Source of the DNA: an uncultured Candidatus Saccharibacteria bacterium
GTDB lineage: Bacteria; Patescibacteriota; Minisyncoccia; Phycocordibacterales; UBA918
Direction of reading: 5' to 3'
DNA: 64,000 nucleotides
Assembly: GCA_964350985.1 (NCBI GenBank)
Contig: CAYGLK010000001.1
Span: 158,636-222,635 of the forward strand
Below are positions 8,582-53,487 of this stretch, in pieces (position 1 is the first letter of the stretch; each line of letters opens with the position of its first letter). Position numbers and translations under genes: made by a program. A model generated the notes under the pieces. The model saw nothing but the letters and a program-made list of their open reading frames with translations. It ran no database searches and was not told the DNA's origin.

Positions 8582-9079
8582 CTATAGTGGAATTTCACAC
8601 TCAATGTCGCCTTGGTCTATCATTAAACGCAAAACATCAGAATTGACTACAATCTCTTGTTCTGTTGGGACAGATTCATCCGAGTAAACTTCATAATGAT
8701 GGTTACCTTCACAAAAATTTGCAGGATCTAGTACATAAATATATCCTTCACCATTAAGCTGAATATTGTTAGTTTCACTCCAGATCCTAGCCTGTCCGTT
8801 TCGCTCGGATATCCGCAAACCCATTCGTTGTTCAGGATCAAGTGGTTTTGCAAGAGATAGAACTAGAGGGAGTAAAAAGTCTCCTGGAGCTCCATAAACC
8901 ACTTTCATATGTTTGTTGTGTTTTGATGAGTGGTCAAAAGCTAGATCCGGATCTAGTTTATTTAATCCTTTCTTTTTTGAACCGTGAAAATTTTTTCCTT
9001 CAGCTTTAGCTCGTTCAAGTAAATTCAATGATTTTATAGGATCAAATTTTTCAGGAGTATTGAATTTTTCTTTATTCAT
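8582..9079 (-). CDS. hypothetical protein (165 aa)
   Basis: Track ORF; no family recognised. Confidence 0.5.
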   Translation of the reverse strand: MNKEKFNTPEKFDPIKSLNLLERAKAEGKNFHGSKKKGLNKLDPDLAFDHSSKHNKHMKVVYGAPGDFLLPLVLSLAKPLDPEQRMGLRISERNGQARIWSETNNIQLNGEGYIYVLDPANFCEGNHHYEVYSDESVPTEQEIVVNSDVLRLMIDQGDIECEIPL

Positions 9080-12449: not shown

Positions 12450-13388
12450 ATGGAAGAATTTTCAAGATCATCTAAAGAAATGAAATCTAATTATGAGAGG
12501 GCTATGGTCAATTATGGTGATGAAGACTTATCAAAAGATGGAACAATGGAGAAGGACCAAGTCTTTCCAACTGCTTTTATCACATCACGTTGTTTTGCGG
12601 AGCAGACTGATATTCCAAATGCCAAAGAGTTATACGCCTCATTCTGCGATCAAATGGGTTTCGTGAAAGGAGAGAATGAACCAGATCAAATAGATACACC
12701 ACATTTTATGGAACTCAGGTATCTGTCTACTGAAAAAGTATTAAAAGAGGCGGTTAAAAATGAAGGAGTTACTCAGGTTGTTGAATTAGCTTCTGGTTTC
12801 ACTCCACACTCAGTAAATTTACTTACTTCAGTAGAGGGAATTAATAATTACATTGAAAATGACTTTGCTGTTAATCTTGATGTGAAAAAGAAAGCCGTAA
12901 ATGATTTTGTAGGAGGTATTCCCGTAGCCTTTGTTCCTGGAAATGCAGTGGAACAGGAAACTTGGGAAAAAATCGAAGCTCAGTTAACAGATGAACCAGT
13001 GGCAATATTTTGTGAGGGTTTAATGATGTATCTCTCTCGCGATCAGCAAATAGAGTTTTTTAATAACATCAAAGAAGTACTTAAGAAAAAGGGTGGTTTC
13101 TTTATGCATGAAGATATTCTTAAATACCATCCAGAACTAAAAGAAAATCCAAGATTTGCCAGGATAACAAACAAATTGAAAGCTATAAGTAGTAATACTG
13201 CTTTAGACGAAGCCTTTACTCAAGAAGGAGTGACTCAATTCTATGAAAGTCTCGGTTTTGTTGTTGACCGTGTTCCAGAAGATGTCCCGTTAAGTATTGA
13301 TAGCTACCCTGAACACACTCGAGAGAACGCAAGAGAATTACAGACAGCTGGCTTTCAGATGTGGAAACTAAGTTTGCCTAAGGAGTAA
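12450..13388 (+). CDS. class I SAM-dependent O-methyltransferase, leucine-carboxyl-methyltransferase (LCM/TcmP)-like
   Basis: VVELASGFTPHS resembles LCM motif I (VVNLGAGLDTR), and PVAIFCEGLMMYLSRDQQIEFFNNIKEVLKKGGFFMHE resembles the LCM (EGLLMYL) region. Confidence 0.5.
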   Translation: MEEFSRSSKEMKSNYERAMVNYGDEDLSKDGTMEKDQVFPTAFITSRCFAEQTDIPNAKELYASFCDQMGFVKGENEPDQIDTPHFMELRYLSTEKVLKEAVKNEGVTQVVELASGFTPHSVNLLTSVEGINNYIENDFAVNLDVKKKAVNDFVGGIPVAFVPGNAVEQETWEKIEAQLTDEPVAIFCEGLMMYLSRDQQIEFFNNIKEVLKKKGGFFMHEDILKYHPELKENPRFARITNKLKAISSNTALDEAFTQEGVTQFYESLGFVVDRVPEDVPLSIDSYPEHTRENARELQTAGFQMWKLSLPKE

Positions 13389-14090
13389 TTCAGCTATTGC
13401 CTCAGGGTTGGAAAACATAGCCTCATGATCTGCATCAATTGTCATTATTTCTGCAGCGTTTGGTAAAAGAGAAATTATTTCATCAAAGGTTTCTTTTTGT
13501 AATGAGATATCATTTTGACACTTTACATAAATAACTGGAACTTTTGTTTGCTGGAAAGAATCAAGTACAACTATCTCCTCGTAGGGTTTAATTGGTTGAG
13601 GTTCAAGTTTAGATAAGAAGTCATTTAATTCATCAGAGTCCGGGCTGCTGTTAAATAAACCTTGTCTTATTTTCTCTATGTTTGGAGGAATTGATTTGTC
13701 AGCACGATTGGACGCAATTTGTCTGTATTTTTCTTGAACTTCGGAAGGAAGGAGTGAGGAAAAGGCTTTATTTTTTAAGATAACCGAAGTGAGAAAAAAC
13801 GCCTTGTTTATCTTTTCTGGTATTTTTTCAATTACTTTAGAAATAGTTATTCCACCTAGGCTATGACTTACTAATACAATATCATTCAATTTATTTGAAT
13901 TTATATAATCTATTACATAGTTTATATAATCATCTATACAAACATCTTCTTTTTTAATTGAGTCATTCAATCCGTTTCCTGGTAAATCCAGAGTATGGCA
14001 AATGAATTTGTCATTTGGTATCAAATTTATTACCTCATTCCAACACCATCCAGCATGATACGCACCGTGGACGAAAAGTATATTTTGCAT
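13368..14090 (-). CDS. alpha/beta-hydrolase, SABP2/methylesterase-like
   Basis: N-terminus ILFVHGAYHAGWCW is the SABP2/MES-family signature. GxSxG nucleophile elbow VSHSLGG. Catalytic His region DADHEAMFSNPE. The 3' end overlaps the 12450..13388 gene convergently by about 20 nt. Confidence 0.75.
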   Translation of the reverse strand: MQNILFVHGAYHAGWCWNEVINLIPNDKFICHTLDLPGNGLNDSIKKEDVCIDDYINYVIDYINSNKLNDIVLVSHSLGGITISKVIEKIPEKINKAFFLTSVILKNKAFSSLLPSEVQEKYRQIASNRADKSIPPNIEKIRQGLFNSSPDSDELNDFLSKLEPQPIKPYEEIVVLDSFQQTKVPVIYVKCQNDISLQKETFDEIISLLPNAAEIMTIDADHEAMFSNPEAIAELLLRQT

Positions 14091-17687: not shown

Positions 17688-18350
17688 ATGAAGAAAATCC
17701 TATCTTTTATCACGACACTATCACTCTTAGGTGGTGTTTTTCCAACCTTGGTTGTGCCAGAGATAGTCACGGCGCAAGGTGATGATTATTGTGCCGAGTA
17801 TTATGGTGACTATGTTCCGAGTAGCTCAAACTTTACCGCCCATGGTTTAACTAAGGTAGAAGTAGCTTTCTCGGATATTTGGAGCGTAGAACCAGGTATG
17901 GGCGGTGGTAATACTATGCCAGTACCCGGTCCGTTCTTGCCAGAAACTCAAGGACATTATTTGACTATACCAATTGTCTTTACTGGTGATCAGATAGGGA
18001 ATGGATCAGTTCAGACAAACTTTTCATTTGTAGAATGGCAGCCCCGGCCAAATATAGATTACCCGGTTGTGACCCATTCAATTTCTTACTCAATTAGTCC
18101 ATGTCCTGGAGATTTTCGACCAGTAGTACAAAATTCACCTGATCCATATCTACGTTTTTCTTGTCGTGGTGGATCTCCTACGATTTCTGGTAATTTTTCT
18201 TTAAGTAGCATTGCTTCTTTGGCAGGCTGTCCGACACCTAAAGGAAAAAAGCTTTACTTAAATATTGCTACTTACAATATGTTTTTGTCAGATTTGCCAT
18301 TTGACCAGTACTGTACAAGTACTTGTGGGGTAGCCTTAAGAGTGCAATAG
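17688..18350 (+). CDS. hypothetical secreted protein with a signal peptide
   Basis: MKKILSFITTLSLLGGVFPTLVVPEIVTAQG is a signal-peptide-like N-terminus; there are several Cys residues. Confidence 0.5.
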   Translation: MKKILSFITTLSLLGGVFPTLVVPEIVTAQGDDYCAEYYGDYVPSSSNFTAHGLTKVEVAFSDIWSVEPGMGGGNTMPVPGPFLPETQGHYLTIPIVFTGDQIGNGSVQTNFSFVEWQPRPNIDYPVVTHSISYSISPCPGDFRPVVQNSPDPYLRFSCRGGSPTISGNFSLSSIASLAGCPTPKGKKLYLNIATYNMFLSDLPFDQYCTSTCGVALRVQ

Positions 18351-18367
18351 AATTTTTAATTGGATAT

Positions 18368-19225
18368 TTAAGAGAAATAGACAGAGAAGTCCATTTCTTT
18401 TTTACCTTCGGGAACGATGCTTCCGATAACTAAATGTCCTCGATTATCTATTTCAGCACTTTTGATTTTTATTCTTTTTCCTTCATGAATAAAAAATGTT
18501 TCTGGCCAACCAGCAAAAGCGCGAATCTTGAGTAACATTTGATAGGCGTCTTTACCACTAGGTAAGTTGCGTGGGTCTATTTCAAGTTGACTCATTTCTT
18601 TGGTGATCTTGGTACAAAAAGTTGCTTCTTCGTGGTTCTGTTCAGTTGGGGTAATTTCAGCATTTAAATATTCAGTCAAAGTAACTGAAAGTAGATCACC
18701 ACCAAGTTCAGCTAAAATCTGATCCAAGACTAGTCCATCCATTGGCCATTCAGTCTCCGGAATACGAGCCTTCTCTTGAGTCAAAATTGGTCCGTGATCC
18801 ATTTTTTCATCAAGTAGCATTACTGATACGCCAGTGTTTCTTTCGTCATTTAAAATTGCACTACGAATTGGACTAGCGCCACGAAATTTTGGTAGTAAGG
18901 AAGGATGTACATTCAAGACTCCTTTTTTAGGTAAGTCTAAAAGCCACTTAGGCAAAATCTTGCCATATGCAACTACGATAAAAACATCCCAGTTAGTTTT
19001 ACTTAATTCTGCAGCTACACTTTCGTCCTTTAGAGTTTCTGGCTGAAGCAGTGAGATTGAGTTTTCACGTGCATAGAAAGCAGCGGGTGGGGGAGTAAGG
19101 ATACCTTTCCTTCCTACCTTAGCATCAGGATTACTGATAATAAGATCTGGAATTATATTAGCTAACTTGAGTCTTTTTAAAACAGTGACAGCAATTTCCG
19201 GAGTGCCAAAAAAAGCTATTTTCAT
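18368..19225 (-). CDS. fmt: methionyl-tRNA formyltransferase
   Basis: MKIAFFGTPEIAV... and HPSLLPKFRGASPI are Fmt signatures. It sits immediately downstream of def with a 4-nt overlap. Confidence 0.85.
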   Translation of the reverse strand: MKIAFFGTPEIAVTVLKRLKLANIIPDLIISNPDAKVGRKGILTPPPAAFYARENSISLLQPETLKDESVAAELSKTNWDVFIVVAYGKILPKWLLDLPKKGVLNVHPSLLPKFRGASPIRSAILNDERNTGVSVMLLDEKMDHGPILTQEKARIPETEWPMDGLVLDQILAELGGDLLSVTLTEYLNAEITPTEQNHEEATFCTKITKEMSQLEIDPRNLPSGKDAYQMLLKIRAFAGWPETFFIHEGKRIKIKSAEIDNRGHLVIGSIVPEGKKEMDFSVYFS

Positions 19226-19755
19226 GTAAGTGGAGCTTCGCTTCGATCTTTATCTTTCATGTCTTCTTTAGTCCAAATTTTTTCAGCGCGATCAGTAAAT
19301 AAGATTCCATCCAAGTGATCAGTTTCGTGTTGAATAATTTGAGCTAAAAGCCCACCAGCGCCACGAGAAAATGGTTTTCCATTTTCATCTAGTGCCTCTA
19401 GAGTGACATTTGTAGATCTTTTGACAGTGCCGTAGCGGTCAGGAATTGAAAGACAACCCTCACCGACTATGTGGGTTTTTTTAGAAAACTTAGTAATTTT
19501 TGGATTAACAGCAATGATAGTTGGTAGCCGGTCCTCTTCACCACTTTGGTCTTCGATGATAAACAGACGCTTACTAACTCCAATTTGTGGGGAAGCAATA
19601 GCAACAGCAGTATAGCCGTCTATTTTATAGGTTTTAATAGCTTGCCTCAGGTCTTTAAGGAGTTTTTTTACACTACCGTCAGCAAACTCTGCTGGTGTGA
19701 TTTCCTCAGCAATAGTATGTAAAGCAGGATGGTTTTCTGGTACTAATTTAGCCAT
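19222..19755 (-). CDS. def: peptide deformylase
   Basis: EGCLSIP and QHETDHLDG are the conserved Def motifs. Confidence 0.9.
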   Translation of the reverse strand: MAKLVPENHPALHTIAEEITPAEFADGSVKKLLKDLRQAIKTYKIDGYTAVAIASPQIGVSKRLFIIEDQSGEEDRLPTIIAVNPKITKFSKKTHIVGEGCLSIPDRYGTVKRSTNVTLEALDENGKPFSRGAGGLLAQIIQHETDHLDGILFTDRAEKIWTKEDMKDKDRSEAPLT

Positions 19756-21760: not shown

Positions 21761-23260
21761 CTAAACTTCGTCCAAGTAAGACAGTTTGGCGCCGATAGAT
21801 GATAGACGTTCAACTAAGTTCTCGTATCCGCGTTTGATGCTGTAGATGTTGCGTAAGACACTATGTCCTTCAGCTCCAAGCATGGCTACTAGAAGAATAG
21901 TGGCTGGCCGTAGGGCAGGTGGGCAGATCAACTCTGTAGACTTTAGTTTTGTTGGTCCAGTTATATAGATACGGTGCGGGTCAGCCAAAGCGGTGTCAGC
22001 TCCAAGTTTTTCAAGTTCGGTAAAGTAGATAGCTCTTTTTTCATACATCCAATCATGAATTAGAGTTTGTCCTTCAGCTTGTGTGGCGATAGCTGCAAAG
22101 AAAGGAAGGTTGTCTGCATTTAGTCCTGGGTAGGGTCTAGAGTGAATTTTTTCTGGAGAAGCAGTGAGCTTGCTGTTTTTTATTTTAAGGTCCACTAGTT
22201 TAGTTACACCGTTGTGTGAGAAGTAAACTTTTGACTTTGTGTATTCGAGTCCCATTTTTTCTAACACTAGTAATTCCAGTTCCAGAAACTCTATCGGGCA
22301 GCGGGTGATAGTTAAGTTTGATTTGGTGACAATGGCTGCTGCAATAAAAAACATACTATCGGTTGGGTCTTCAGCTAAGTTGTATTCTATCGGGGTGTTG
22401 ATTTCAGCTATACCGGTAACTGTCAGTGTAGTAGTACCAATTCCTTCGATTTTTACTCCTAGTTTTTGTAAGAAAATACAAATCTCTTGCACCATGTAGT
22501 TGGCTGAGGCGTATTTGATTATGGTTGTGGTTGGTGTTTTCGCTGCGGCAAAAAGAGCATTTTCAGTTACTGTGTCACCAGACTCATAAAGAATGATCTC
22601 ACTAGGAGTTGCTGGTACTTTAGTAACGTTATAAGAGGTTGCAGTGGTTTCAATATTGACGCCAAAGTTCTCCAGGGCGTAGAAATGAGGACGTACTGTT
22701 CGACTGCCAAGTTTGCAGCCACCAGTTTGAGGAAGACTGAATTTATCCATTAAGTGGATTAGTGGTCCGATAAACATCACAATACTTCGAGTTTTTTTGG
22801 CAGCTTCGATATCAATTTTCTTTAGGTCGATTTTCTTTGGTGGAGTAATCTTGAGATTGTTTCCTTGCCATTCTATTTTTACACCAATACTTTCAAGTAC
22901 TTCGATAATACGATGAACTTCTTCAATCCGAGGCATGTGATGCAAGGTGGTGGAGCTTCTGTTTAGAAGGCTGGCACAAAGGAGTCCAACAGCACCGTTT
23001 TTTGAAGTGTTTGTTTCGATGGTTCCAGAGAGTTTTTTACCACCATCAATTTGAATATTATAGCCACCAGGTGAGAGGCTGATAATGTTTTGTCCCAGAG
23101 CCTGACTGACCTTGGATAAGGTGTCAGTACTGATGTTTTGTTTACCTGACTCTAGTCTGGCGATAGCGCTTTGAGTAGTTTTCATTTTTTTGGCTAAAGC
23201 TGCTTGGGTGATACCCTTACTTTCTCTAACCTTAGTAATACGTTGTCCGATATTTTTCAT
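21761..23260 (-). CDS. murA: UDP-N-acetylglucosamine 1-carboxyvinyltransferase (MurA) with an N-terminal XRE-type helix-turn-helix domain
   Basis: The HTH reads MKNIGQRITKVRESKGITQAALAKKMKTTQSAIARLESGKQNISTDTLSKVSQALG. MurA motifs are LSGTIETNTSKNGAVGLLCASLL and the active-site region LPQTGGCKLGSRTVRPH. The track ORF starts 87 nt further upstream; MKNIGQ at 23260 is the more likely start. Confidence 0.8.
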   Translation of the reverse strand: MKNIGQRITKVRESKGITQAALAKKMKTTQSAIARLESGKQNISTDTLSKVSQALGQNIISLSPGGYNIQIDGGKKLSGTIETNTSKNGAVGLLCASLLNRSSTTLHHMPRIEEVHRIIEVLESIGVKIEWQGNNLKITPPKKIDLKKIDIEAAKKTRSIVMFIGPLIHLMDKFSLPQTGGCKLGSRTVRPHFYALENFGVNIETTATSYNVTKVPATPSEIILYESGDTVTENALFAAAKTPTTTIIKYASANYMVQEICIFLQKLGVKIEGIGTTTLTVTGIAEINTPIEYNLAEDPTDSMFFIAAAIVTKSNLTITRCPIEFLELELLVLEKMGLEYTKSKVYFSHNGVTKLVDLKIKNSKLTASPEKIHSRPYPGLNADNLPFFAAIATQAEGQTLIHDWMYEKRAIYFTELEKLGADTALADPHRIYITGPTKLKSTELICPPALRPATILLVAMLGAEGHSVLRNIYSIKRGYENLVERLSSIGAKLSYLDEV

Positions 23261-23273
23261 AATAGAGTTGATT

Positions 23274-23289
23274 ATAGCATATATGCTAT
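23274..23289. promoter_or_regulatory. Perfect 16-bp palindrome ATAGCATATATGCTAT 14 nt upstream of the HTH-MurA start, in the divergent murA/mreB region; a candidate operator
   Basis: Seen directly; it is its own reverse complement. Confidence 0.35.
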
Positions 23290-23355
23290 AAGTTGTAACT
23301 TTGTTATGTGGAGGAAAAACGTAGTATAGTATAGGACCTAATAACATGATAAATA

Positions 23356-24372
23356 ATGTTCTGGAATAACTTAACTCCTAAAATCGGTATTGATCTTGGT
23401 ACAACTAGTATCTTGGTTTTTGTTCCTGGACAAGGGATTATTCTAAACGAACCATCGGTGGTAGCAGTGTCAGATGATAATCAAGTTTTGGCAGTAGGAG
23501 TCGAGGCTAAAAGAATGATTGGTAGAACCCCTGATAGCATTAGAGCGTATCGTCCTATGAAAGATGGAGTGATTGCTGACTACAGAGTAACTGAAGTGAT
23601 GTTGCGTTATTTTATCAGGAAGGCTCTAAGCCGCTACAACCTCTTTAAGCCAGACGTGATGGTCTCTGTACCAGCGGGGGTTACTTCTACTGAAAGAAGA
23701 GCGGTTGTAGAGGCGACCATAAAAGCTGGAGCCAGAAATGCTTATGTAGTTAAAGAGCCGATCTTGGCGGCTATTGGTGCAGGAGTACCTATATATGAAC
23801 CTCAAGGTCATATGATCGTCGACATTGGGGGAGGAACAATAGACGTGGCAGTAATTTCTCTTGGAGGAATAGTAGCCGCTAACTCCGTGAAGTGCGCTGG
23901 AAATAGAATAGACGCTGCGATTATCGACTACGTCAAAAAAACTCGTAATCTGTCGATTGGAGATAAGACCGCTGAAGAAATTAAAATTAAAATCGGTTCA
24001 GCTTTACCTTTGGAAGAAGAGTTAATGATGGAGGTCAAAGGGAGAGATGTTTTGTCGGGCCTACCGCGTACAGCTGAAGTTCGTACTAATGAAGTGGTGC
24101 GAGCAATTGGGCGTGAATTACGTGAGATGATTAAAGCGATCAAAGACGTGTTCCAAAACACACCACCTGAGCTTGCTGCCGATATTATTGACGGCGGAAT
24201 TATTATGACTGGAGGAACTTCACAATTACGCAATTTTCCTGAGTTAGTAAAAAGGCGTTCGGGGGTTAAAGCTTTCTTGGCCGATCAGGCACTATTTTGT
24301 GTAGCGACTGGTACTGGAATCGCACTGGAACACTTAGATACATATAAACGAACTGTTTTAGCAAAGAGATAA
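23356..24372 (+). CDS. mreB: rod shape-determining protein MreB (actin homolog)
   Basis: IGIDLGTTSILVF..., DIGGGTIDVAV and other actin-fold motifs. Confidence 0.9.
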   Translation: MFWNNLTPKIGIDLGTTSILVFVPGQGIILNEPSVVAVSDDNQVLAVGVEAKRMIGRTPDSIRAYRPMKDGVIADYRVTEVMLRYFIRKALSRYNLFKPDVMVSVPAGVTSTERRAVVEATIKAGARNAYVVKEPILAAIGAGVPIYEPQGHMIVDIGGGTIDVAVISLGGIVAANSVKCAGNRIDAAIIDYVKKTRNLSIGDKTAEEIKIKIGSALPLEEELMMEVKGRDVLSGLPRTAEVRTNEVVRAIGRELREMIKAIKDVFQNTPPELAADIIDGGIIMTGGTSQLRNFPELVKRRSGVKAFLADQALFCVATGTGIALEHLDTYKRTVLAKR

Positions 24373-24465: not shown

Positions 24466-27228
24466 ATGATAGAAGGAACACCACAACAGTTTTCTTCGGC
24501 AGAAGAAGAGTTGAAATATTTGCGCAATAAAGTAGCTGAGCGTGAGCGCGAGTTATTAATGCGCAATCCAGAAAGTGATCATTCTGATACCGAAACTATT
24601 GCCAGACAAGAGATCAGAGAATATTCCAGCTTTACTCCTAAGATGATTTTGGATCAAGAACACGCTTTAGATGAGCCGACTCTAGCCGCGTCAGTAGAAC
24701 AAATAGGAATCTCACATGATCCGGCTCAGGATATTATTGATTTGGCTGGAGAAAAAGGAATTAGGAATGCGTTGTCCGTCTTAGATAAAGTTGATAATCC
24801 TTATGTGATTGATGAAGTCCATCGTCGGTTAGTTGAGTTAATAAAAGGAGGAGCGCAAATACAAGATCTTAAAGAAGGAGTTGAACCTTGGCATATACTT
24901 CACATGACTCTATACGAAGTGACTTTGCCCGAAATCACTGGAGAAGGTGGTAAAGAATATCAGCTGTCTGAGCTTGTCGGTATGATGGAGCAACTTTTCG
25001 CTGGACTTAGAACTATCGGTGCAAATCAATCGGCAAATCATTTTGTGATTGAGTTGGCTGTGGCAGACAATAGTGACGATATCGTTTTTTATGTAGCCGT
25101 ACCAACCAAGTTCGTCTCACTGTTTGAAAAACAAACTCTTTCTCTTTTTCCTCATGCAGAGTTAGCAATCCAAGCCCATGACTACAATATCTTTGTCGAT
25201 CAGGGGACTACCTATGTGGCTGAAGCAAAACTCAAAAAGAATCCTATCTACCCACTTCGAACCGCGGATGGTTTTTCAGCTGATCCACTAGCAGTTATTT
25301 TAAATGCTTTCTCAAAGATTGAACGAGAAGGTGGTGGAGCAGCAGTGCAGTTTGTTATCCGTCATCCACAAAAGAAATATCGTAAGACCTACGAAGAGGT
25401 AATAAAAAATATTCAAAAAGGAATGAAAGCTAGTGAAGCGATATCTCGTAGTTCTATTGGAGGTGAGATTTTAGGATCAGTGTCAGACTTCCTGTTTAAG
25501 AAAGAGAAAAAAGATGAAGTTGATACGAGTTCAACAGATACTGACAAAATTGAAATATTCAATCGCAAAATAAAGACAGATTTAGTGGAGACAAATATTA
25601 GAATAGCTGTCTCAGCTCAGAATCCTGATCGAGCTGAACAAATTTTAACTGAGATTGAATCAACTTTTAATCAGTTTGATTTGGTAGAAGGTAATGCTTT
25701 TTCTTTTAAGCGAGCAAAGGGTAGTGCTCTAAAGCAGGCCCAGAAAGCCTTTTCTTTCCGTGAATTTAATAGGGGTGTCAATATACCTTTGTCTTTAAGT
25801 GAATTAGCGACGCTAATTCACTTCCCAAGCAATGGTATTAGTGGATCACCGCAGTTTAAACAGTCTCAGTCCAATACAGCCGCCGCACCAAACGACATGC
25901 CAACTAGCGGTACCATCTTGGGTATCAACAAACATAGAAATTCTGAGAAAGAGATTTATATGACCGAGCTTGATCGAATGCGTCACTTGTATGTCATTGG
26001 TCAAACAGGTACTGGTAAGTCAAAGTTTTTAACTAACTTGATCATTCAAGATATTCAAGCAGGAAACGGAGTTTGTATGATTGACCCTCACGGGACAGAT
26101 ATTGAAGATGTGCTGGGTGCGATACCGCCAGAGCGAGAAAAAGATGTAATTTACTTTGATCCTTCAAATCTAGACCACGTTGTTGGGTTAAACATGCTCG
26201 AGTATGACGAAAGTAAGCCAGAGCAGAAAACTTTTGTAGTCAATGAACTCTTCTCAATTTTTCAAAAACTTTATGGAGCCAATCCAGAAAGTATGGGGCC
26301 GATGTTTGAGCAGTATTTCCGTAACGCTACTTTACTCGTGATGGAAGACCCGTCTACTGGTAGTACTTTGATGGATATCTCCAGAGTAATGGTAGACGCT
26401 TCGTTTAGAAGAATGAAATTAGAAAAAGCTACTAACCCAGTAGTGGTTCAGTTTTGGAAAGAAATTGCGACTAAGGCGGGTGGGGAAGCAGCACTAGAAA
26501 ATATCGTTCCTTATATTGTGTCCAAGTTTGATGTATTTACTGCCAATGACTACATGCGTCCAATTATTGGACAGCAAAAATCCGCTTTCAACTTCAGGCA
26601 AGTAATGGATGAGCGAAAGATCTTGCTTGTAAATCTATCTAAGGGACGACTAGGAGAGATAAATGCCAATCTAATCGGAATGATTTTTGTAGGGAAGATT
26701 TTGATGGCAGCATTATCACGAGTAGATGATCCAACTAAAAGCTTTCCGCCTTTTTACTTACATATAGATGAGTTTCAAAACGTTTCTACTCCAGCTATCG
26801 CTTCGATTTTGTCTGAGGCCCGTAAGTACAAACTAAGTCTTACTGTAGCGCACCAGTTTATTGCGCAGCTAGATGAAAATATTCGTGATGCAGTTTTTGG
26901 TAACGTTGGTTCGATGGCTGCTTTCCGAGTTGGTTCGGAAGACGCTCAGTTCTTGGAGCAACAATTTTCTCCTGTCTTTGAAGCGAAGGATTTGATGAAT
27001 GTACCAAACTACAATGCCTTAGTCCGCATGTTGACAAATGGTACTCCAACCAAACCTTTCTCAATGGCCACCTTAGCTCCAATTGTATCTGACCCAGCAA
27101 GACTAGCTGAATTAATCAGACAAAGTGCTGAACGGTATGGACGACCACGAGCGGAAGTAGAAGCAGAGATTGCTGAGCGCTATGTAAAAAAGCCAATGAT
27201 GCCCCGAGACCCAAGTGCTATGATGTAG
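24466..27228 (+). CDS. HerA/FtsK-superfamily (DUF87/AAA_10, TraD/VirB4-like) P-loop NTPase with a ~500-aa N-terminal extension
   Basis: Walker A plus a HerA-like segment: LYVIGQTGTGKSKFLTNLIIQDIQAGNGVCMIDPHG. Walker B region: FYLHIDEFQNV...LTVAHQ. No TM segments. Confidence 0.6.
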   Translation: MIEGTPQQFSSAEEELKYLRNKVAERERELLMRNPESDHSDTETIARQEIREYSSFTPKMILDQEHALDEPTLAASVEQIGISHDPAQDIIDLAGEKGIRNALSVLDKVDNPYVIDEVHRRLVELIKGGAQIQDLKEGVEPWHILHMTLYEVTLPEITGEGGKEYQLSELVGMMEQLFAGLRTIGANQSANHFVIELAVADNSDDIVFYVAVPTKFVSLFEKQTLSLFPHAELAIQAHDYNIFVDQGTTYVAEAKLKKNPIYPLRTADGFSADPLAVILNAFSKIEREGGGAAVQFVIRHPQKKYRKTYEEVIKNIQKGMKASEAISRSSIGGEILGSVSDFLFKKEKKDEVDTSSTDTDKIEIFNRKIKTDLVETNIRIAVSAQNPDRAEQILTEIESTFNQFDLVEGNAFSFKRAKGSALKQAQKAFSFREFNRGVNIPLSLSELATLIHFPSNGISGSPQFKQSQSNTAAAPNDMPTSGTILGINKHRNSEKEIYMTELDRMRHLYVIGQTGTGKSKFLTNLIIQDIQAGNGVCMIDPHGTDIEDVLGAIPPEREKDVIYFDPSNLDHVVGLNMLEYDESKPEQKTFVVNELFSIFQKLYGANPESMGPMFEQYFRNATLLVMEDPSTGSTLMDISRVMVDASFRRMKLEKATNPVVVQFWKEIATKAGGEAALENIVPYIVSKFDVFTANDYMRPIIGQQKSAFNFRQVMDERKILLVNLSKGRLGEINANLIGMIFVGKILMAALSRVDDPTKSFPPFYLHIDEFQNVSTPAIASILSEARKYKLSLTVAHQFIAQLDENIRDAVFGNVGSMAAFRVGSEDAQFLEQQFSPVFEAKDLMNVPNYNALVRMLTNGTPTKPFSMATLAPIVSDPARLAELIRQSAERYGRPRAEVEAEIAERYVKKPMMPRDPSAMM

Positions 27229-27236
27229 ATAATAAT

Positions 27237-29885
27237 ATGGAGAATGAACCCAAAATAATAAATTCCAAACCAGAAAAAATAAATCGTCGTGAATTCGTAG
27301 GGGATTTGTTGATAGATTTTTCTGAGTATGACGATGACGGACCTGCTTTTCGTAGTTTTGATTCCATAAAAGGTGTCGTTGAAGCAGAGCTCGAAAATAC
27401 AGGATTAGACCCAGATAAGATAGCTGTTTTCAAAAAAGAAGTCTTAGATCGTACTGGTTACCAGGTCAGACAATTTGGCGACAAGCTTGGTTATGAAGAA
27501 TTAAGGCAACTTTATAAAAGTCTGGCTCAGAATCTAGTCCAATTAATTGAACAAAATGATGAGACTGAGAAAAAGGATGAAATTAATAATATACCAGATA
27601 ACCTACCAGGTGCAGATGAAGTAGAAATCACTTTACCTAAAAAATATGAAGTATCTCAGGAATACAAAGACTGGCGAGAGAATCTAATTAGTGCTAAGAG
27701 AGCATATTCAGAAACAGAAAGTAAATATAATCTAGCTTTACAAAAGTATTACCATAACTCTGTTATTTCTGATCTGAGAAGAATTGGCTCAGGAGTCAAG
27801 GATATATTTGGACTGAAAACAAAATTATCTCCTGAATTAGATAATCTCAAAAAAGAATTAATTTTACACAGACAGCAATATGCAGAATCCCTAAGTGCTG
27901 TTTTGCAGGCTCGTGGACTTAAAAATTTTGATTACGAAAGTGAAAAAACAAAAATACATTTTGTTGAAAAATTTATCATAAAACCAAATAAGAAGCTGTT
28001 GGAATATCAAGAGAACAATCAGTCAAAAGAAAATAGGTCAATAACAGCTAATATTTTAGAAAGGTTTGCGGGAGGTTTTAATAAAAACAAACAATTGATT
28101 CGATATGGTGCGATGACGATCGGAATCACTGCGGCAGGCGTGGCTGCTGCTGCCGTTGCTCCAACAGCAGCGGTAGGGGCTTTCATAGGAGGAGCTTCTT
28201 TTAAGGCTTCTAAAATATTCGCTTCTTTATATCTTGGAGCTGAGGTAGGTGTTAAAACTCATAACGCTATGGGTAAATTTGTCACTAAAGCAGAGAATGA
28301 GTTTGGTAATACAGAAAAGAAGATTAAGTCTGACTTCAGTCTTGATAATCTTAGTCGTGATGCAGAAATTTATGAAAAAACCAAAAAAGATATTAGAGTC
28401 GCACAAAAGCGGCAAACTGCGGCTACGGTTTTTTCTGGTGTGGCAGCTGGTGGCGCAACATATGGTTTGGGTAATGTACTTGAGTCGCAATTTTCAGGTC
28501 CAGAAGTAAGTGAGAAAATTACTTGGGAAACTGATACAGATTTCGAAGCAGAAACAAATATGATTGAGACTCAACAGACACTGCCTGGAGTCCAGGTCAC
28601 ATTAGACAACAGCTCTTTTGGTGAAAGTAACTATCTAATCTCTAGCGAAATAGGATTTAACGGTTCAGAACTACCGGAAGATGCTAAAGAACAGCTGGAT
28701 GATTTGATTAAAAAAGAAGTTACAAAAGCTCATATAGACAACCATCACTTTAATATAGATAGACTTGAAGGTGTTTTACCAGGAGAATTAGAAAGAAAGT
28801 TCGGTAAAATGGATTGGTGGCCAGAAGGTGGAGTTGTTGTTGATTTAGAGGCAAGGGAAGTAAGTAACCCGTTAGAAAATAATGCTGAAGAGACACCTCC
28901 AGTGCAAGCTGATTTACACGAGCCCGAACCAGAAACAGAACCTGAACCTGAACCTGAACCTGAAGCAGTATCTGAGCCTGAAAGTGCTGATATTCATGTA
29001 GTAGAAGAACTAGATACTTTATCTAAAATTGTAAATGATCATTTCAGGACCCAGTTAGATCAATTACCTAAAGAAGATTACAATAAAGTGCTTTATGAGT
29101 TATTGGATCGGGTAAAAGAAGACTCAGATTTGCGAGAATCTTTAGGGATGAGAAGCACTAACATAAATGAAATTTTTGTTGGTGAGGAATTAAATTTGTC
29201 TAGCTTAGATGCTGAATTTGCGGATATTATTTCTGAAGACAATCAGGTTGGAGCTCCAGAGGTTGAAACTGTTGAAAGTCCAAAAGTCGATGCAAATAAA
29301 TTTTACACCGGGGATATAGAACTTGAATCGACGGCTGCGCTCGAAGTAGATGATTCAAGGGTGTCAGATTCTGCTGAGACCATACCTTCTAGTGTAGAAA
29401 ATGAAGCAAAGTATACGCAGACAAACTATGAAGTTGAGCGATTAGTTCCACCTACCGGCAACTTTCCAATATCTGGTCAGTATTTAAATGATCCTGCATA
29501 CGTTGAATATAGGCAACAAATATTCCCAGACGAGAAATCTTTCCTTAAAGCAGTAGATCAATCTGCAAAGCTAATAGATAATTCTACCAGTGGTTTCCTG
29601 GATCGGTTTTTTGGAGAAAGTTATAAGAGTCCTTACGAAGTAATGTCATCTATGACTTTGTCTGAACTAGAAGAGCTAGAAGAAGCTCCGCGAGATCTTG
29701 CTCGAGGTTTTTGTGAGCAAAATAACCTCAAGTATGAATCTTACCGTAATTGGCAAGATCAGATTCAGCAAATGAAAGATCTTCCGCATCAGGACAGTAC
29801 GACCTTAAAAGATTTATTCTCTCGCCAGGTTGTACAAAATGCTGCGGAAAATTATGATCCTTTAAATAGAACAATAACTACATAA
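27237..29885 (+). CDS. large (882 aa) hypothetical protein with central hydrophobic segments and a highly acidic PE-rich region
   Basis: A/G-rich TM-like segments are GAMTIGITAAGVAAAAVAPTAAVGAFIGG and AATVFSGVAAGGATYGLG. The acidic tract is PEPETEPEPEPEPEAVSEPE. There is a 9-nt gap after the ATPase gene. Confidence 0.5.
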   Translation: MENEPKIINSKPEKINRREFVGDLLIDFSEYDDDGPAFRSFDSIKGVVEAELENTGLDPDKIAVFKKEVLDRTGYQVRQFGDKLGYEELRQLYKSLAQNLVQLIEQNDETEKKDEINNIPDNLPGADEVEITLPKKYEVSQEYKDWRENLISAKRAYSETESKYNLALQKYYHNSVISDLRRIGSGVKDIFGLKTKLSPELDNLKKELILHRQQYAESLSAVLQARGLKNFDYESEKTKIHFVEKFIIKPNKKLLEYQENNQSKENRSITANILERFAGGFNKNKQLIRYGAMTIGITAAGVAAAAVAPTAAVGAFIGGASFKASKIFASLYLGAEVGVKTHNAMGKFVTKAENEFGNTEKKIKSDFSLDNLSRDAEIYEKTKKDIRVAQKRQTAATVFSGVAAGGATYGLGNVLESQFSGPEVSEKITWETDTDFEAETNMIETQQTLPGVQVTLDNSSFGESNYLISSEIGFNGSELPEDAKEQLDDLIKKEVTKAHIDNHHFNIDRLEGVLPGELERKFGKMDWWPEGGVVVDLEAREVSNPLENNAEETPPVQADLHEPEPETEPEPEPEPEAVSEPESADIHVVEELDTLSKIVNDHFRTQLDQLPKEDYNKVLYELLDRVKEDSDLRESLGMRSTNINEIFVGEELNLSSLDAEFADIISEDNQVGAPEVETVESPKVDANKFYTGDIELESTAALEVDDSRVSDSAETIPSSVENEAKYTQTNYEVERLVPPTGNFPISGQYLNDPAYVEYRQQIFPDEKSFLKAVDQSAKLIDNSTSGFLDRFFGESYKSPYEVMSSMTLSELEELEEAPRDLARGFCEQNNLKYESYRNWQDQIQQMKDLPHQDSTTLKDLFSRQVVQNAAENYDPLNRTITT
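28926..28961 (+). repeat. Hexanucleotide tandem repeat, (GAACCT)x4 preceded by two degenerate units, inside the 882-aa gene (PE dipeptide repeat)
   Basis: gaaccagaaacagaacctgaacctgaacctgaacctgaa seen directly. Confidence 0.7.
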
Positions 29886-29888
29886 TGT

Positions 29889-30188
29889 ATGATAGACGAA
29901 ACTAATGACAACCTTCCGCCAATAATGCCAGATCTCTCTGAAGATGAACAAAACGCTTTCTTAGAAGAGGTTGGTACTTTGATTTTTAAAAGCACAGTGA
30001 TGCGTTATCTTTCGGTGTTATCTCCAGAGCAAGCGCAAGTTTTTGAAACTTTTGTAAAAGTGCATTCTGAGTCAGATAATTTTATTGAAGAACTGTCTAA
30101 ACAGTATCCAGAATTTAAAATACTACTAGACGAAGAGATGGAAGCGTTCAATAATGAACTTGGAGAAAATAATACACAGAAACTTTAA
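29889..30188 (+). CDS. small acidic hypothetical protein (99 aa)
   Basis: Track ORF, 3 nt after the previous gene. Confidence 0.4.
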   Translation: MIDETNDNLPPIMPDLSEDEQNAFLEEVGTLIFKSTVMRYLSVLSPEQAQVFETFVKVHSESDNFIEELSKQYPEFKILLDEEMEAFNNELGENNTQKL

Positions 30189-30225
30189 TGCTTAGCAGAG
30201 AGCGGGGTGTTATGATGTAGAAGTT

Positions 30226-31761
30226 ATGGACTCAAATAGTTCTTTAGGTTTTGATCTTAATTCTCAAAAAGGAGTTGCAGTTCTTTTGGCATCTTTACGT
30301 GCTAGTGATTTGACTGGTGCTCAAAAAAACGAGATTCGTGATTTAATTTTTTCATATACAAATGGTGGAGGAGACGTTTCAATAAAAATTGCTTTAGAAC
30401 AAAAACTACGCGCACACAATATTAAACCTGTTAGTCCAGTTGGTGGCGCTCAAACTTCAGCTGCAAAAATAGCACCTACACCGGTGTTGCCGTTTGGTAG
30501 TTCAAGGCCGTCTCCAGTCTTTAAGGTGCCCGTTTTTTCAAATGCTAATTCCAAACCATCACCAGCGCCAACTGAGCAAAAAACAGCACCAGAAATTAAA
30601 AAAGCTGAACCAGCTCCAGTAGTAGAGAAGAAAAATGAAGAAGTAAAAATACCAACTCCAACTCCAACCCCGCAGTCAAGGCCAGAACCTAAACCAGCGG
30701 CTACAAAAGTTGAGGTAAAGCCAGTAGTAAATGGCAGTAGTGTTGCTAATTCTAATGACTATATAGATAGAATTCGAGAAATAAAAAGTGCTGTTAACAG
30801 CAAGGTTGGTAATCCGGTAAATCTAGTAGATATAGACAACGAAGTTGGTCGTGAATACATGAATGCTCTACTTGAAGCGATGAAGCGTTTGAGCGGAGGA
30901 GCGTCTGGACAAATGGAGGCAGCTATGAAGAGACTAGAAACAGCTTTTTCTGCGGTTGAAAAAGCTGTAGAAGGACACAAACCAAAGGCTGACGTACCTC
31001 AAGTAGAACCAGCTCGTCCAATAACTCCAGCACCTGCACCTACCCACACTCAAGCGCCAGCGCCAAAACCAACAGCTCCAGAAGTAGATACATCACCGGT
31101 CTTGGGAAGTAATTTTGCAAGTGCTCCAAAACCTCCATCAATACCCACACCCACAGCTCCGGCTTCAAAACCACTTCCACCTCCTCCACCTCCTCCACAA
31201 ACCCAACCAAAGACAGAGCAAAAAAAAACTGATAGCGAATCAAACCCTTGGCAAGCAGCTAGAGAAACAGTTGCTGCAGCAGCAGTCGCTACACCACCTC
31301 CAGTAAAACCTGTAGCACAAGCACAAAGCCAAGCTCAAACTTATCAGGCTAAGTCTATCTTGGGGGAAGACCGTCTTGCTACACCAGCAGACCTTCCACT
31401 TAAACATGCTTCTGATACTAGTGATTCAACAGACCCTCTTTATAGTAATGAAGTAAATACTGGCCTTGATCAACTACTCTCTGACTGGAGTCTGTTTAAG
31501 AAAAGTGGGTTGTTTGGAACTGGCCCAAAAGGGAAAGACCACCCATTGTTTGTTAAGATTGCTGGACTCCAAATACCGCTACTATTAGCAGGACGCTTTG
31601 AAGGATCAACTCAAGAAATAAAACAGAGTATTACAGACTATATGAATGGTTGGCGCTATGAACAGGGAATTATCTACGAAAAAGGCGAGACTTTTGAGCG
31701 TTATCTAAGACGAGTCATTAAACTGATTCTAGATTTACAAAAAAAGCGCATACCTTCATAA
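30226..31761 (+). CDS. proline-rich hypothetical protein (511 aa) with a conserved-looking C-terminal ~130-aa domain
   Basis: PTPTPTPQSRPEPKP and PPPPPPPQTQP tracts. Last gene of the ATPase operon, immediately before the holB-like gene. Confidence 0.5.
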   Translation: MDSNSSLGFDLNSQKGVAVLLASLRASDLTGAQKNEIRDLIFSYTNGGGDVSIKIALEQKLRAHNIKPVSPVGGAQTSAAKIAPTPVLPFGSSRPSPVFKVPVFSNANSKPSPAPTEQKTAPEIKKAEPAPVVEKKNEEVKIPTPTPTPQSRPEPKPAATKVEVKPVVNGSSVANSNDYIDRIREIKSAVNSKVGNPVNLVDIDNEVGREYMNALLEAMKRLSGGASGQMEAAMKRLETAFSAVEKAVEGHKPKADVPQVEPARPITPAPAPTHTQAPAPKPTAPEVDTSPVLGSNFASAPKPPSIPTPTAPASKPLPPPPPPPQTQPKTEQKKTDSESNPWQAARETVAAAAVATPPPVKPVAQAQSQAQTYQAKSILGEDRLATPADLPLKHASDTSDSTDPLYSNEVNTGLDQLLSDWSLFKKSGLFGTGPKGKDHPLFVKIAGLQIPLLLAGRFEGSTQEIKQSITDYMNGWRYEQGIIYEKGETFERYLRRVIKLILDLQKKRIPS

Positions 31762-46954: not shown

Positions 46955-47554
46955 ATGGTGAATAAAAGCAATAAAGATACACATCAGGACGACGTAAATA
47001 TCACCACGGAAGACATTGAAATTACCGAACCTGATCTTGAAGAGGTTGAGGCAAAACAAGATTCATTTAACAATACCTTAAGAGACAAGCTTAAAGCTTG
47101 CGAAGCTGAAAAGCGGGAAATTTTAGAAGAAACCCAAAGAGCTAAAGCTGACTTTCTCAACGCTAGACGCAGACTGGAAGAAGAAAAGAAGCGAGAACGT
47201 GAAAAGACAACTGTAAAACATATCGAGGATCTTATACCTCTGTGTGACAGCTTTCATGTCGCTATGTCAAACAAAGAAGTTTGGGAGAAGGCTGACGAAA
47301 ACTGGCGTAAAGGAATCGAAGGAATTAATTCTCAGTTACAGAAAATTCTTTCAAACAATAAAGTTTTAGCTATTGATCCGATCGGAGAAAAATTTGATCC
47401 GCATCAACATGAAGCTCTATCTACAGTTAAAGCCAGCGAGGCAGAGAACGATAAGGTAATGACAGTAATTCAGATGGGTTACGTATTAAAGAGAGATGAC
47501 AACACCACAGAACTGATCAGGCCAGCACGAGTCATAATCGGAAGTCACGAATAA
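46955..47554 (+). CDS. grpE: nucleotide exchange factor GrpE
   Basis: Coiled-coil N-terminus and the C-terminal GYVLKRDDNTTELIRPARVIIGS pattern; located upstream of dnaK. Confidence 0.85.
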   Translation: MVNKSNKDTHQDDVNITTEDIEITEPDLEEVEAKQDSFNNTLRDKLKACEAEKREILEETQRAKADFLNARRRLEEEKKREREKTTVKHIEDLIPLCDSFHVAMSNKEVWEKADENWRKGIEGINSQLQKILSNNKVLAIDPIGEKFDPHQHEALSTVKASEAENDKVMTVIQMGYVLKRDDNTTELIRPARVIIGSHE

Positions 47555-51307: not shown

Positions 51308-52123
51308 ATGAAATTTTCTGATCAATACAGCAACATAAGTGATGAGATTCTAATGATCCGAAAGAAAATTTTTACTCCATTAGATCAAGCTGTGGAGCAG
51401 ATCGCCATAAACCGAAGTCAGAGTAAAGTCTTGGAGAGTGTAAAAGACTTTTTAGATAATGACATACCGATCCATTTTGACAACGATGAGTTTGTTTTTT
51501 ATCTATCAAGGTTTATAGCGACGCCAAATTTGGAGCTTCTTAAAACACTTTCATTAATAAATTCTTACCCCAACAAGCTTGTGATAGGTGAAGATTTAGA
51601 CAGCATCTTTGTTAGTAATAATAAATTAAAAAAAGCTTTAGGTAAATTATCAGTGATCGCTAAGTCTACGAATAGAAAAGATGATATTTTAGAAAATTTC
51701 ACAATACTAGATTTCCATAATTCGAATGGGAAAAAGATCTCAACTTTAAAGAATAATCATGGTGAAAACTTAGTTAATTTTCACCATGATTTGTTTAAAC
51801 AAATTAATTTTAAGAATGAAATACGTATTTGTGACGAATCGAAATGGATCGACAGGAATTTTAGAGATGATATCTCAAAACAGTATGAACGTATGTTAGC
51901 CTTGCTATGTTACCACGGTATTATGTTTGAATCATATCCTACAGAAGAACACAATTTTCTAAAAACAATCGTTTATCCCGCCTTTATGAAAGTTTATGAA
52001 AAAACAGGAGTCAAACCTTTGATCGTAGAGCATATATCTGATGAAGAGGAATTAGATACAAATTGGAATGCTTATCCTATTGAATTGTATGAGACGATAA
52101 AAATTAAATCATTATTACTATGA
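51308..52123 (+). CDS. hypothetical protein (271 aa), AT-rich
   Basis: Track ORF; no family recognised. Confidence 0.45.
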   Translation: MKFSDQYSNISDEILMIRKKIFTPLDQAVEQIAINRSQSKVLESVKDFLDNDIPIHFDNDEFVFYLSRFIATPNLELLKTLSLINSYPNKLVIGEDLDSIFVSNNKLKKALGKLSVIAKSTNRKDDILENFTILDFHNSNGKKISTLKNNHGENLVNFHHDLFKQINFKNEIRICDESKWIDRNFRDDISKQYERMLALLCYHGIMFESYPTEEHNFLKTIVYPAFMKVYEKTGVKPLIVEHISDEEELDTNWNAYPIELYETIKIKSLLL

Positions 52124-53091: not shown

Positions 53092-53487
53092 ATGAAAAAA
53101 GATCCATCACTATTTAGCAGACACTTTTTAACTATCGTACTCGTTCCTTTTTTGATACTAGCTGTAGTGACTAGTTTTTATCGTTTTATGATCTTAGGTG
53201 ATTATGAAGTCACATATGAAGTTGAGTGCGATCCCTATGGTCAGAGTTGTTATGTTTGGTGTGAAGATGATGTGTGTGAAGAGCCTTTTTATTATAGTTA
53301 TGTATCCAGGTCAGCGAATGATGTTGAACAACTTTGTGGAGAAGATATAACTGATTGTGAGTTGGCGTCCGTGTGTACATCTACCGAATCGTCATGTCTT
53401 ATTACATATTGTGATGATGAGGAGTGTGACACACTGTCCCCCGAAGATGAGTCATTAGAAGAATTTAGTAGCGAAAATAATATCTAA
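53092..53487 (+). CDS. membrane-anchored Cys-rich acidic protein (131 aa, about 12 Cys)
   Basis: N-terminal TM helix, then CDPYGQSCYVWCEDDVCEEP...CGEDITDCELASVCTSTESSCLITYCDDEECD. It ends 1 nt before the histidine kinase gene. Confidence 0.45.
   Translation: MKKDPSLFSRHFLTIVLVPFLILAVVTSFYRFMILGDYEVTYEVECDPYGQSCYVWCEDDVCEEPFYYSYVSRSANDVEQLCGEDITDCELASVCTSTESSCLITYCDDEECDTLSPEDESLEEFSSENNI

Follow-up and report, generated by a model that had tools for sequence, protein, structure and literature searches.

Within a 64,000-nucleotide stretch of the genome of an uncultured Candidatus Saccharibacteria bacterium (contig CAYGLK010000001.1; the whole 64-kb stretch is hereafter referred to as the window), the gene for MurA, the first committed enzyme of peptidoglycan synthesis, encodes an additional XRE/Cro-C1-type helix-turn-helix (HTH) domain at the N-terminus and is preceded by a 16-bp palindrome that overlaps its promoter, an arrangement through which murA is probably repressed by its own product. 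The HTH-murA coding sequence (21761–23260), delineated by translation of the open reading frame (ORF) together with Pfam, NCBIfam, AlphaFold and Foldseek, is located on the minus strand, as are all of its features, and specifies a 499-residue protein beginning MKNIGQRITKVRESKGITQ, with the stop codon at 21761–21763. The HTH domain spans residues 4–55 (23096–23251), as defined by Pfam HTH_3 and the AlphaFold helices, and includes the recognition-helix region TTQSAIARLES at residues 28–38 (23147–23179). A flexible linker of ~12 residues (residues 56–67; 23060–23095), modelled with a low per-residue confidence (pLDDT) that falls below 50 for residues 61–65, leads into the MurA enzyme domain (residues 68–499; 21764–23059), which was assigned from its aligned catalytic residues.

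The fusion of an XRE-type HTH to MurA, as proposed in a preliminary description of this DNA, is borne out by a single ORF with a conserved ATG and matches to both Pfam HTH_3 (PF01381; residues 10–56, E = 4e-13, 49.5 bits versus a cutoff of 23) and EPSP_synthase (PF00275; residues 72–486, E = 9e-45). The C-terminal 430 residues also match the NCBIfam MurA subfamily NF006873 (313 bits versus a cutoff of 297), whereas the protein falls under the cutoffs of the equivalog TIGR01072 (301 versus 392.7 bits) and of NF009470 (210 versus 552). Since the TIGR01072 equivalog cutoff is missed, the window MurA is, by its profile scores, a divergent member of the MurA family. Residues K87, N88, R158, C182, R187, D383, R409 and R451 align with K22, N23, R91, C115, R120, D305, R371 and R397 of the E. 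coli enzyme, and all eight are invariant in an alignment of 34 homologs; the predicted active-site cysteine is thereby identified as Cys182 (codon 22715–22717), the counterpart of MurA Cys115. In the AlphaFold model (34 homologs; pLDDT 86.7, predicted TM-score 0.84), the HTH comprises helices at residues 4–14, 19–25, 30–38 and 45–55, and the MurA body superposes in Foldseek on over 40 crystal structures of MurA with TM(target) values of 0.86–0.93, all of which lack the N-terminal HTH of ~67 residues. The nearest solved relatives of the HTH are HigA (6AF3), the 434 repressor and HipB. No second EPSP-family ORF was noticed within the window. One polypeptide accordingly carries an HTH and a MurA with the catalytic signature, as expected at the sequence level of a trigger enzyme.

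The ATG start codon (23258–23260), which is not preceded by a Shine–Dalgarno (SD) motif, is found at the same position or a few codons away in 79 related loci from species-representative genomes, many of which contain an in-frame stop codon 1–8 codons upstream of it. A longer ORF of 528 residues, starting at an ATG at 23347, was rejected, as the extension is unconserved and relatives have in-frame stops just 5' of the conserved ATG. Initiation downstream of the HTH, a possibility raised in the preliminary description, is ruled out by the conserved ATG and the upstream in-frame stops, and the SD-poor genome with its leaderless-type promoters (see below) is in keeping with the assigned start. 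Nor is the HTH a separate small ORF, as the frame is continuous without an internal stop and all homologs are fused.

The set of related loci comprises 80 species genomes with 494 kb examined, of which 79 were used for the start and synteny counts and 78 for the motif alignment. Both the HTH and the EPSP domain are present in 120 of the 120 best homologs (76–90% identical; Paceibacteria, Kaiserbacteria and Nomurabacteria), and likewise in all 120 best homologs of a member that is 36% identical (Lipton-, Taylor-, Colwell- and Doudnabacteria), in whose homolog set the complete catalytic signature is kept by 113 of 121 proteins. The mean pairwise identity is 0.675 for the HTH versus 0.761 for the enzyme, and within the recognition region TTQSAiAR.EsG.QN conservation reaches at least 90% across the 80 species. 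Judged from this conservation, the HTH is under purifying selection and the HTH-MurA fusion is real and ancient. In public databases, such proteins are found among thousands of scored candidates under the labels 'UDP-N-acetylglucosamine 1-carboxyvinyltransferase' or 'helix-turn-helix domain-containing protein', and no description of an HTH-MurA fusion or its operator was found in the searchable literature (full text, with the operator sequence included), the coverage of which is incomplete.

The palindrome upstream of murA, a candidate operator with the sequence ATAGCA-TATA-TGCTAT (ATAGCATATATGCTAT), occupies positions 23274–23289 of both strands within the murA/mreB divergent region and is, as initially described, its own reverse complement. 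It is separated from the ATG by 13 nt (23261–23273), one fewer than the 14 nt given previously, and the centres of its half-sites, ATAGC and GCTAT, are 11 bp apart. ATAGCATATATGCTAT is present as a single copy in the window, even when up to three mismatches are permitted (a threshold at which matches arose in 22 of 100 shuffles), and sites of the form ATAGC-N6-GCTAT with two mismatches are rarer than in shuffles. No second such site with one mismatch or fewer was found in the window, despite the presence of the genes for PBP2 and of the mraW-ftsI-mur ligase genes. A perfect 16-bp palindrome would not be significant in itself, since the window contains four versus 1.1 expected from first-order Markov simulations; the significance of this one lies in its conservation and position.

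A promoter scan of the minus strand yielded GTTACA-17-TGnTATAAT, with 10 of 12 matches as well as the TG dinucleotide of an extended -10 element. The extended -10 of murA (TGCTATAAT; 23271–23279), including the hexamer TATAAT (23271–23276), overlaps the right arm of the palindrome, and a -35-like hexamer, GTTACA, is located 17 nt further upstream (23294–23299). Because the -10 ends only 10 nt before the ATG, we infer that the murA mRNA is leaderless or nearly so. The promoter of def in the same window reads tTGCTATAAT and has no left arm, indicating that a -10 of this kind needs no mirror half. SD motifs are scarce in the window, with even a 4-mer match preceding only ~6 of 56 long ORFs. TATAAT-like boxes ending 6–9 nt before the ATG are seen at many genes, for example at 8582–9079, 13368–14090 and 19222–19755 on the minus strand and at 17688–18350, 46955–47554, 53092–53487 and 57875–59305 on the plus strand, and it seems that the genes of this genome from the Candidate Phyla Radiation (CPR) are as a rule expressed from leaderless mRNAs.

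Upstream of murA, ATAGC-N6-GCTAT is present in 77 of the 80 species loci, in 76 of them within 200 nt of the ATG and in one at 254 nt; it occurs nowhere else in the 494 kb of these loci, where 0.49 occurrences would be expected from composition. Together with the universal fusion among the best homologs, this is the outcome of the ortholog survey that the preliminary description had recommended, and the absence from close relatives that it had allowed for was not encountered. The three loci lacking the motif comprise one whose upstream sequence is limited to 16 nt (L044), one with a single mismatch (L078) and one whose MurA lacks the HTH (L079). In the alignment of 78 sequences, TG at positions 11–12 and TATAmT at positions 14–19 are conserved, corresponding to the extended -10, while the flanks of the palindrome, including the position of the -35, are unconserved. 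The lack of conservation of the -35-like element is in line with an extended -10 promoter. The left arm, ATAGCA, is as invariant as the right arm, although it is located in the promoter spacer, outside both the -10 and the -35, and on this alignment it is an element without a promoter role. At 57 of 76 loci, a distance of 9–14 nt separates the end of the palindrome from the ATG, such that the -10 ends 6–11 nt before the ATG, which implies a leaderless or near-leaderless murA transcript in these species as well. At five loci (L015, L034, L042, L062 and L066), the palindrome and promoter are instead located 110–130 nt from the murA ATG and an SD-like GGAGG or GGG directly precedes the start; in some lineages, murA thus appears to have changed over from a leaderless mRNA to one with a leader.

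The presence of the left arm follows the presence of the HTH. In the Kaiserbacteria locus L079, the MurA is 75% identical and nested within the fused clade, yet lacks an HTH and starts with MNVRIEGGKKL; a divergent mreB is retained, and the promoter still reads TATGCTATACT, with AGACC in place of the left arm. A second unfused relative (L082; 59% identical, mreB divergent) keeps TGCTATACT and has AATGC replacing ATAGC, and two more have tRNA genes upstream and no palindrome-like site. An HTH gene was not found near any of these four loci. The site is present in 77 of 78 fused and 0 of 4 unfused loci (Fisher p = 3e-6, with loci counted without phylogenetic correction). In distant fused lineages, variant palindromes are always located 0–13 nt upstream of the start: ATATCA-TATA-TGATAT, preceded by a perfect TTGACA, in L083 and L089, ATATCA-GATA-TGATATAAT in L212, ATAaCA-TATA-TGCTATACT in L211, and ATCTCA-TATG-TGAGAT (ATCTCATATGTGAGAT) in the actinomycete Nonomuraea, where it is the same in three species with differing GC-rich flanks. 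Changes at half-site positions 3–4 are mirrored in the opposite arm, as would be expected for a site that is bound by a dimer.

The identical 16-mer is also encountered in front of other XRE genes. Unbiased scanning of metagenome contigs for the exact sequence returned at least 120 loci, of which at least 13 are HTH-murA and at least 41 belong to a eukaryote-like interspersed repeat, with other XRE operons making up most of the remainder. Among the 79 listed non-repeat loci, at least 35 have an XRE homolog 17–620 nt downstream in the same orientation. Many of these XRE proteins are antitoxin-like, ~100 residues in length, and carry the helix GTTQSAIARLESG, GTKQSVISRLESG or TTQSAVARIE, and their palindrome is often positioned on TTGACA-N17-TGCTATAAT with a leaderless-type start. 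In viral contigs, an XRE neighbour was found at 0 of 55 loci of the same 16-mer, which argues that the association of palindrome and XRE gene is no by-product of composition; viral ATAGCA.. and ATATCA.. palindromes yielded no helix-to-operator code, with adjacent XRE genes at 0/55 and 3 of at least 120 loci, respectively, and serve as a negative control only.

At fifteen of the metagenome loci (L092, L099, L120, L124, L143, L144, L150, L153, L156, L159, L164, L178, L179, L186 and L203), the identical palindrome is located on the TTGACA-N17-TGCTATAAT promoter of toxin-antitoxin-like operons, encoding a Gp49/RelE-like toxin with an XRE antitoxin or the antitoxin alone, with helices near-identical to that of the MurA HTH. 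At nine others (L091, L103, L113, L116, L137, L158, L165, L177 and L201), a more divergent XRE protein of 77 residues (MSRNPEEPVYNRIEEAR...) is encoded straight after two tandem palindromes, a GCATTAATGC-containing TGTTGCATTAATGCTAC followed by ATAGCATATATGCTAT. The palindrome looks like a widely reused module of operator and extended -10. The interspersed repeat (including L093, L094, L098, L106, L107, L110–L112, L121, L123 and L125–L133) contains the 16-mer as its core, reading ...TTTTTAGCGCGCG-ATAGCATATATGCTAT-AGCGCGCTATATGCCATCGCCCGTCCGTCCGTC... with (GTCC/GTCT)n tails, and derives from samples Ga0056131/Ga0056132, Ga0209681 and Ga0209788; it is probably a transposon or satellite of a eukaryotic host and unrelated to murA.

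We suggest, with a probability of roughly 0.7, that HTH-MurA binds its own operator and represses its own promoter. The direct autoregulation envisaged in the preliminary description finds strong support in these comparisons, since the palindrome overlaps the extended -10, its left arm is lost with the HTH, its variants are symmetric, and XRE genes with the same helix are found behind the same palindrome. The gene thereby has a predicted cognate operator within its own promoter, the second attribute of a trigger enzyme, as judged by comparative genomics. In the proposed mechanism, two HTH-MurA molecules would occupy the half-sites ATAGC and GCTAT, one helical turn apart on the same face of the DNA, a geometry that is the same as that of XRE antitoxins having this operator. 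The bound pair would cover the spacer and the -10, exclude RNA polymerase and repress murA, and negative autoregulation of this kind would set the level of the first committed peptidoglycan enzyme.

Several observations weigh against autoregulation by HTH-MurA. The right arm of the palindrome is fully accounted for by the promoter, such that the argument for an operator depends on the five to six bases of the left arm. Palindromes are bound by XRE domains in dimeric form, and MurA is commonly considered monomeric; the AlphaFold model, being that of a single chain, is silent on a dimer interface. The unfused sample comprises four loci that share clade structure and are not independent, and the link between recognition helix and operator spans few lineages without a clear code. 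Two distant fused members (P0144 and P0147), the genes of which are located within operons, have no clear operator. Finally, our view of the host genome is that of the 64-kb window, outside of which a trans-acting XRE protein or further operators may be encoded.

A trans-acting regulator of this type, for example an antitoxin-like XRE protein encoded elsewhere, would make the palindrome its operator and leave the HTH of MurA to do something else. Such an arrangement would draw on the small XRE proteins with nearly the same recognition helix that follow the identical palindrome in other bacteria, and on the 64 kb to which inspection of the host was confined; we nevertheless consider it unlikely, as no other XRE homolog (E ≤ 1) was found in the window or in the 494 kb of the 80 related loci, the loss of the left arm exactly in relatives with an HTH-less MurA would be left unexplained, and the operator shifts symmetrically with the lineage of the fused protein. 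The HTH could alternatively have a non-repressor role, such as MBF1-like protein-protein bridging, nucleoid tethering or localisation, with the palindrome kept as promoter architecture. The HTH does score against aMBF1 and other non-repressor HTH models, and the right arm amounts to no more than an extended -10; what renders this explanation quite improbable is the left arm, which is invariant in 77 species within a normally unconstrained spacer, decays upon loss of the HTH while the -10 stays, and is dispensable for the same -10 at def.

The position of the palindrome between divergent genes raises the question of mreB (23356–24372, plus strand; Pfam MreB_Mbl, E = 2e-127), which is oriented divergently to murA in 76 of the 79 related loci and usually 63–100 nt away. 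Two overlapping, back-to-back extended -10 elements could constitute a bidirectional murA/mreB promoter without a dedicated binding protein, and the plus strand of the window indeed reads TGCTATAAG, a fair -10. The reverse hexamer is unconserved, however, with the base for its final T being right in only 21 of 78 sequences; the palindrome adjoins murA even where mreB is 400–1359 nt away; HTH-less relatives retain a divergent mreB without the left arm; and a separate conserved block closer to mreB resembles an mreB promoter. A bidirectional promoter is hence very unlikely, and by the same observations the co-regulation of mreB that had been put forward alongside autoregulation is not supported, although the abutting -35 regions could interact. 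Least probable of all is a function of the palindrome as an RNA hairpin, located in the 5' untranslated region and influencing stability, translation or termination. A stem of 8 bp with a 4-nt loop is possible (-7 kcal/mol), and A-to-G changes at position 6 would keep G-U pairing, but this is a weak structure (z = -2.0; equalled by 9 of 200 shuffles) that has no Rfam match and whose stems are invariant rather than covarying. Moreover, the -10 lies within the palindrome, such that the hairpin would be outside the murA transcript from that promoter, and in unrelated XRE operons, too, a -10 following TTGACA falls on this sequence.

The interval separating the palindrome from mreB contains a conserved block rich in T and C, TTTTCCCCAA (reverse complement TTGGGGAAAAGCGGTACTATG), which is located within 23300–23355 of the window and equivalently in L002–L040, ~18–28 nt 5' of the palindrome. 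This block is probably the promoter of mreB itself, with a spacer of unusual conservation, and in many relatives it is followed by a near-leaderless start of mreB. On the other side, priA comes after murA in 73 of 79 related loci, and the mreB/priA arrangement in most loci points to an old synteny. Directly 3' of mreB, three large ORFs of 920, 882 and 511 residues (24466–31761, plus strand) gave in Pfam only a weak HerA/DUF87 ATPase match for the first and none for the other two. The remaining three perfect 16-bp palindromes of the window are located at 8941–8956, 51789–51804 and 54349–54364 (CTAGATCCGGATCTAG, ATTTGTTTAAACAAAT and AATCACTGCAGTGATT, respectively).

A minority branch of the family (P0132, P0135, P0141, P0144, P0147, P0225 and P0227, as well as 8 of the 121 homologs) has lost Cys115, R120 and R397, with the HTH remaining highly conserved. 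Loci of this Cys-less branch include L083 (2624–5503), L211 (2558–5530), L089 (95–5003) and L212 (1474–2952). In L083 and L211, the Cys-less gene is divergent from a canonical murA-murB pair, the intergenic region of 60–84 nt holds the palindrome, and mur-ligase or ddl genes come after the Cys-less gene; L089 is similar. Judged from this gene context, the Cys-less proteins appear to be pseudoenzymes serving as transcription factors of cell-wall precursor genes.

Outside the CPR, cultured species of Nonomuraea (Actinomycetota, ~70% GC) encode a catalytically intact HTH-MurA that is 52% identical to the CPR enzyme (L081 3001–4530, L388 2501–4030 and L390 2501–3997), with the homologue cluster comprising 246 members. 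The neighbours of the gene are a formyltransferase/enoyl-CoA hydratase fusion and the gene for a phage-type integrase, and since the integrase adjoins it, Nonomuraea may have acquired HTH-MurA by horizontal transfer. As this homologue (e.g. WP_214634277.1, with the operator ATCTCATATGTGAGAT) comes from a cultured organism, the autoregulation hypothesis is open to experiment.

More speculatively, the MurA body could act as a ligand sensor, with its transition between open and closed forms in response to UDP-GlcNAc, phosphoenolpyruvate (PEP) or UDP-MurNAc gating the binding of DNA; the idea derives from the Cys-less branch, which keeps the HTH and the operator beside genes of the pathway. Occupancy of the operator by the tethered HTH pair would then be set by UDP-GlcNAc, PEP, the 'dormant' complex with UDP-MurNAc or fosfomycin adducts, and the divergent murA-murB and mur-ligase/ddl operons would be the targets of a precursor-sensing factor. 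The joint reading, in which HTH-MurA is a metabolite-gated feedback loop in one protein, the scaffold of which repeatedly gave rise to a catalysis-free, precursor-sensing transcription factor and spread to the actinomycete Nonomuraea, is offered tentatively and appears to us rather doubtful as a whole. If it were true, CPR bacteria would sense the flux of cell-wall precursors directly at the murA promoter.

MurA, the target of fosfomycin, governs the entry into peptidoglycan synthesis, and the control of its level is an active topic, with ClpCP/ReoM proteolysis known from Firmicutes and partner proteins from Proteobacteria; a DNA-binding domain within MurA itself is not known to serve this purpose. 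A MurA with a built-in repressor domain would constitute a third, minimalist way to control this level, and would represent the norm across a very large group of uncultivated bacteria with few regulators (Parcubacteria/Paceibacteria and relatives). It would also provide a candidate protein-operator pair for studies of gene regulation in the CPR, at the leaderless-type, extended -10 promoters found there. Compared with canonical MurA (EC 2.5.1.7; E. coli 1UAE and C. jejuni 5UJS), HTH-MurA shares the fold (TM ~0.9) and all catalytic residues, and differs in its HTH extension of ~67 residues and its divergent sequence.

With the XRE antitoxins and repressors (HigA-like, Y4mF/HipB-coupled and RstR-like), HTH-MurA shares the type of HTH, a near-identical recognition helix, T[TK]QSxI[AS]RxE, and the identical ATAGCATATATGCTAT on an extended -10, often after TTGACA and with a leaderless-type start. 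The antitoxins, however, are proteins of ~75–120 residues that are paired with a toxin or stand alone, whereas HTH-MurA carries its HTH on a presumably essential enzyme of 430 residues and has no toxin. Classification of HTH-MurA as a type II antitoxin was rejected, as its neighbours are mreB and priA, no toxin is present, and TIGR03070 scores 40.6 bits versus a cutoff of 71.65.

The closer parallel is with trigger enzymes, that is, bifunctional enzyme-repressors such as BirA (biotin ligase and bio repressor), PutA (a ribbon-helix-helix domain with proline dehydrogenase) and NadR (an HTH with NMN adenylyltransferase). As in these proteins, HTH-MurA unites a metabolic enzyme and an N-terminal DNA-binding domain in one polypeptide, and a palindromic, here predicted, operator overlaps the promoter of its own gene or pathway, with negative feedback on the pathway as the predicted outcome. 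In contrast to them, the DNA-binding domain adopts the XRE/Cro-C1 fold rather than a winged HTH or ribbon-helix-helix, the enzyme is MurA, and the protein is found mainly in uncultivated CPR bacteria. A further parallel is provided by MocR/GabR-type regulators, in which an HTH is fused to an enzyme-derived and often inactive sensor domain. The Cys-less branch (P0132, P0135, P0141, P0225 and others) resembles these in keeping the HTH and operator while having lost catalytic residues, beside murA, murB, mur ligases and ddl, and is distinct in that the putative sensor has an enolpyruvyl transferase fold, not that of a pyridoxal phosphate-dependent aminotransferase, and the HTH is of the XRE rather than the GntR type. 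The HTH-MurA of the window, judged by its catalytic residues, is no pseudoenzyme, and the family would offer a natural series that leads from enzyme to enzyme-repressor to pseudoenzyme regulator.

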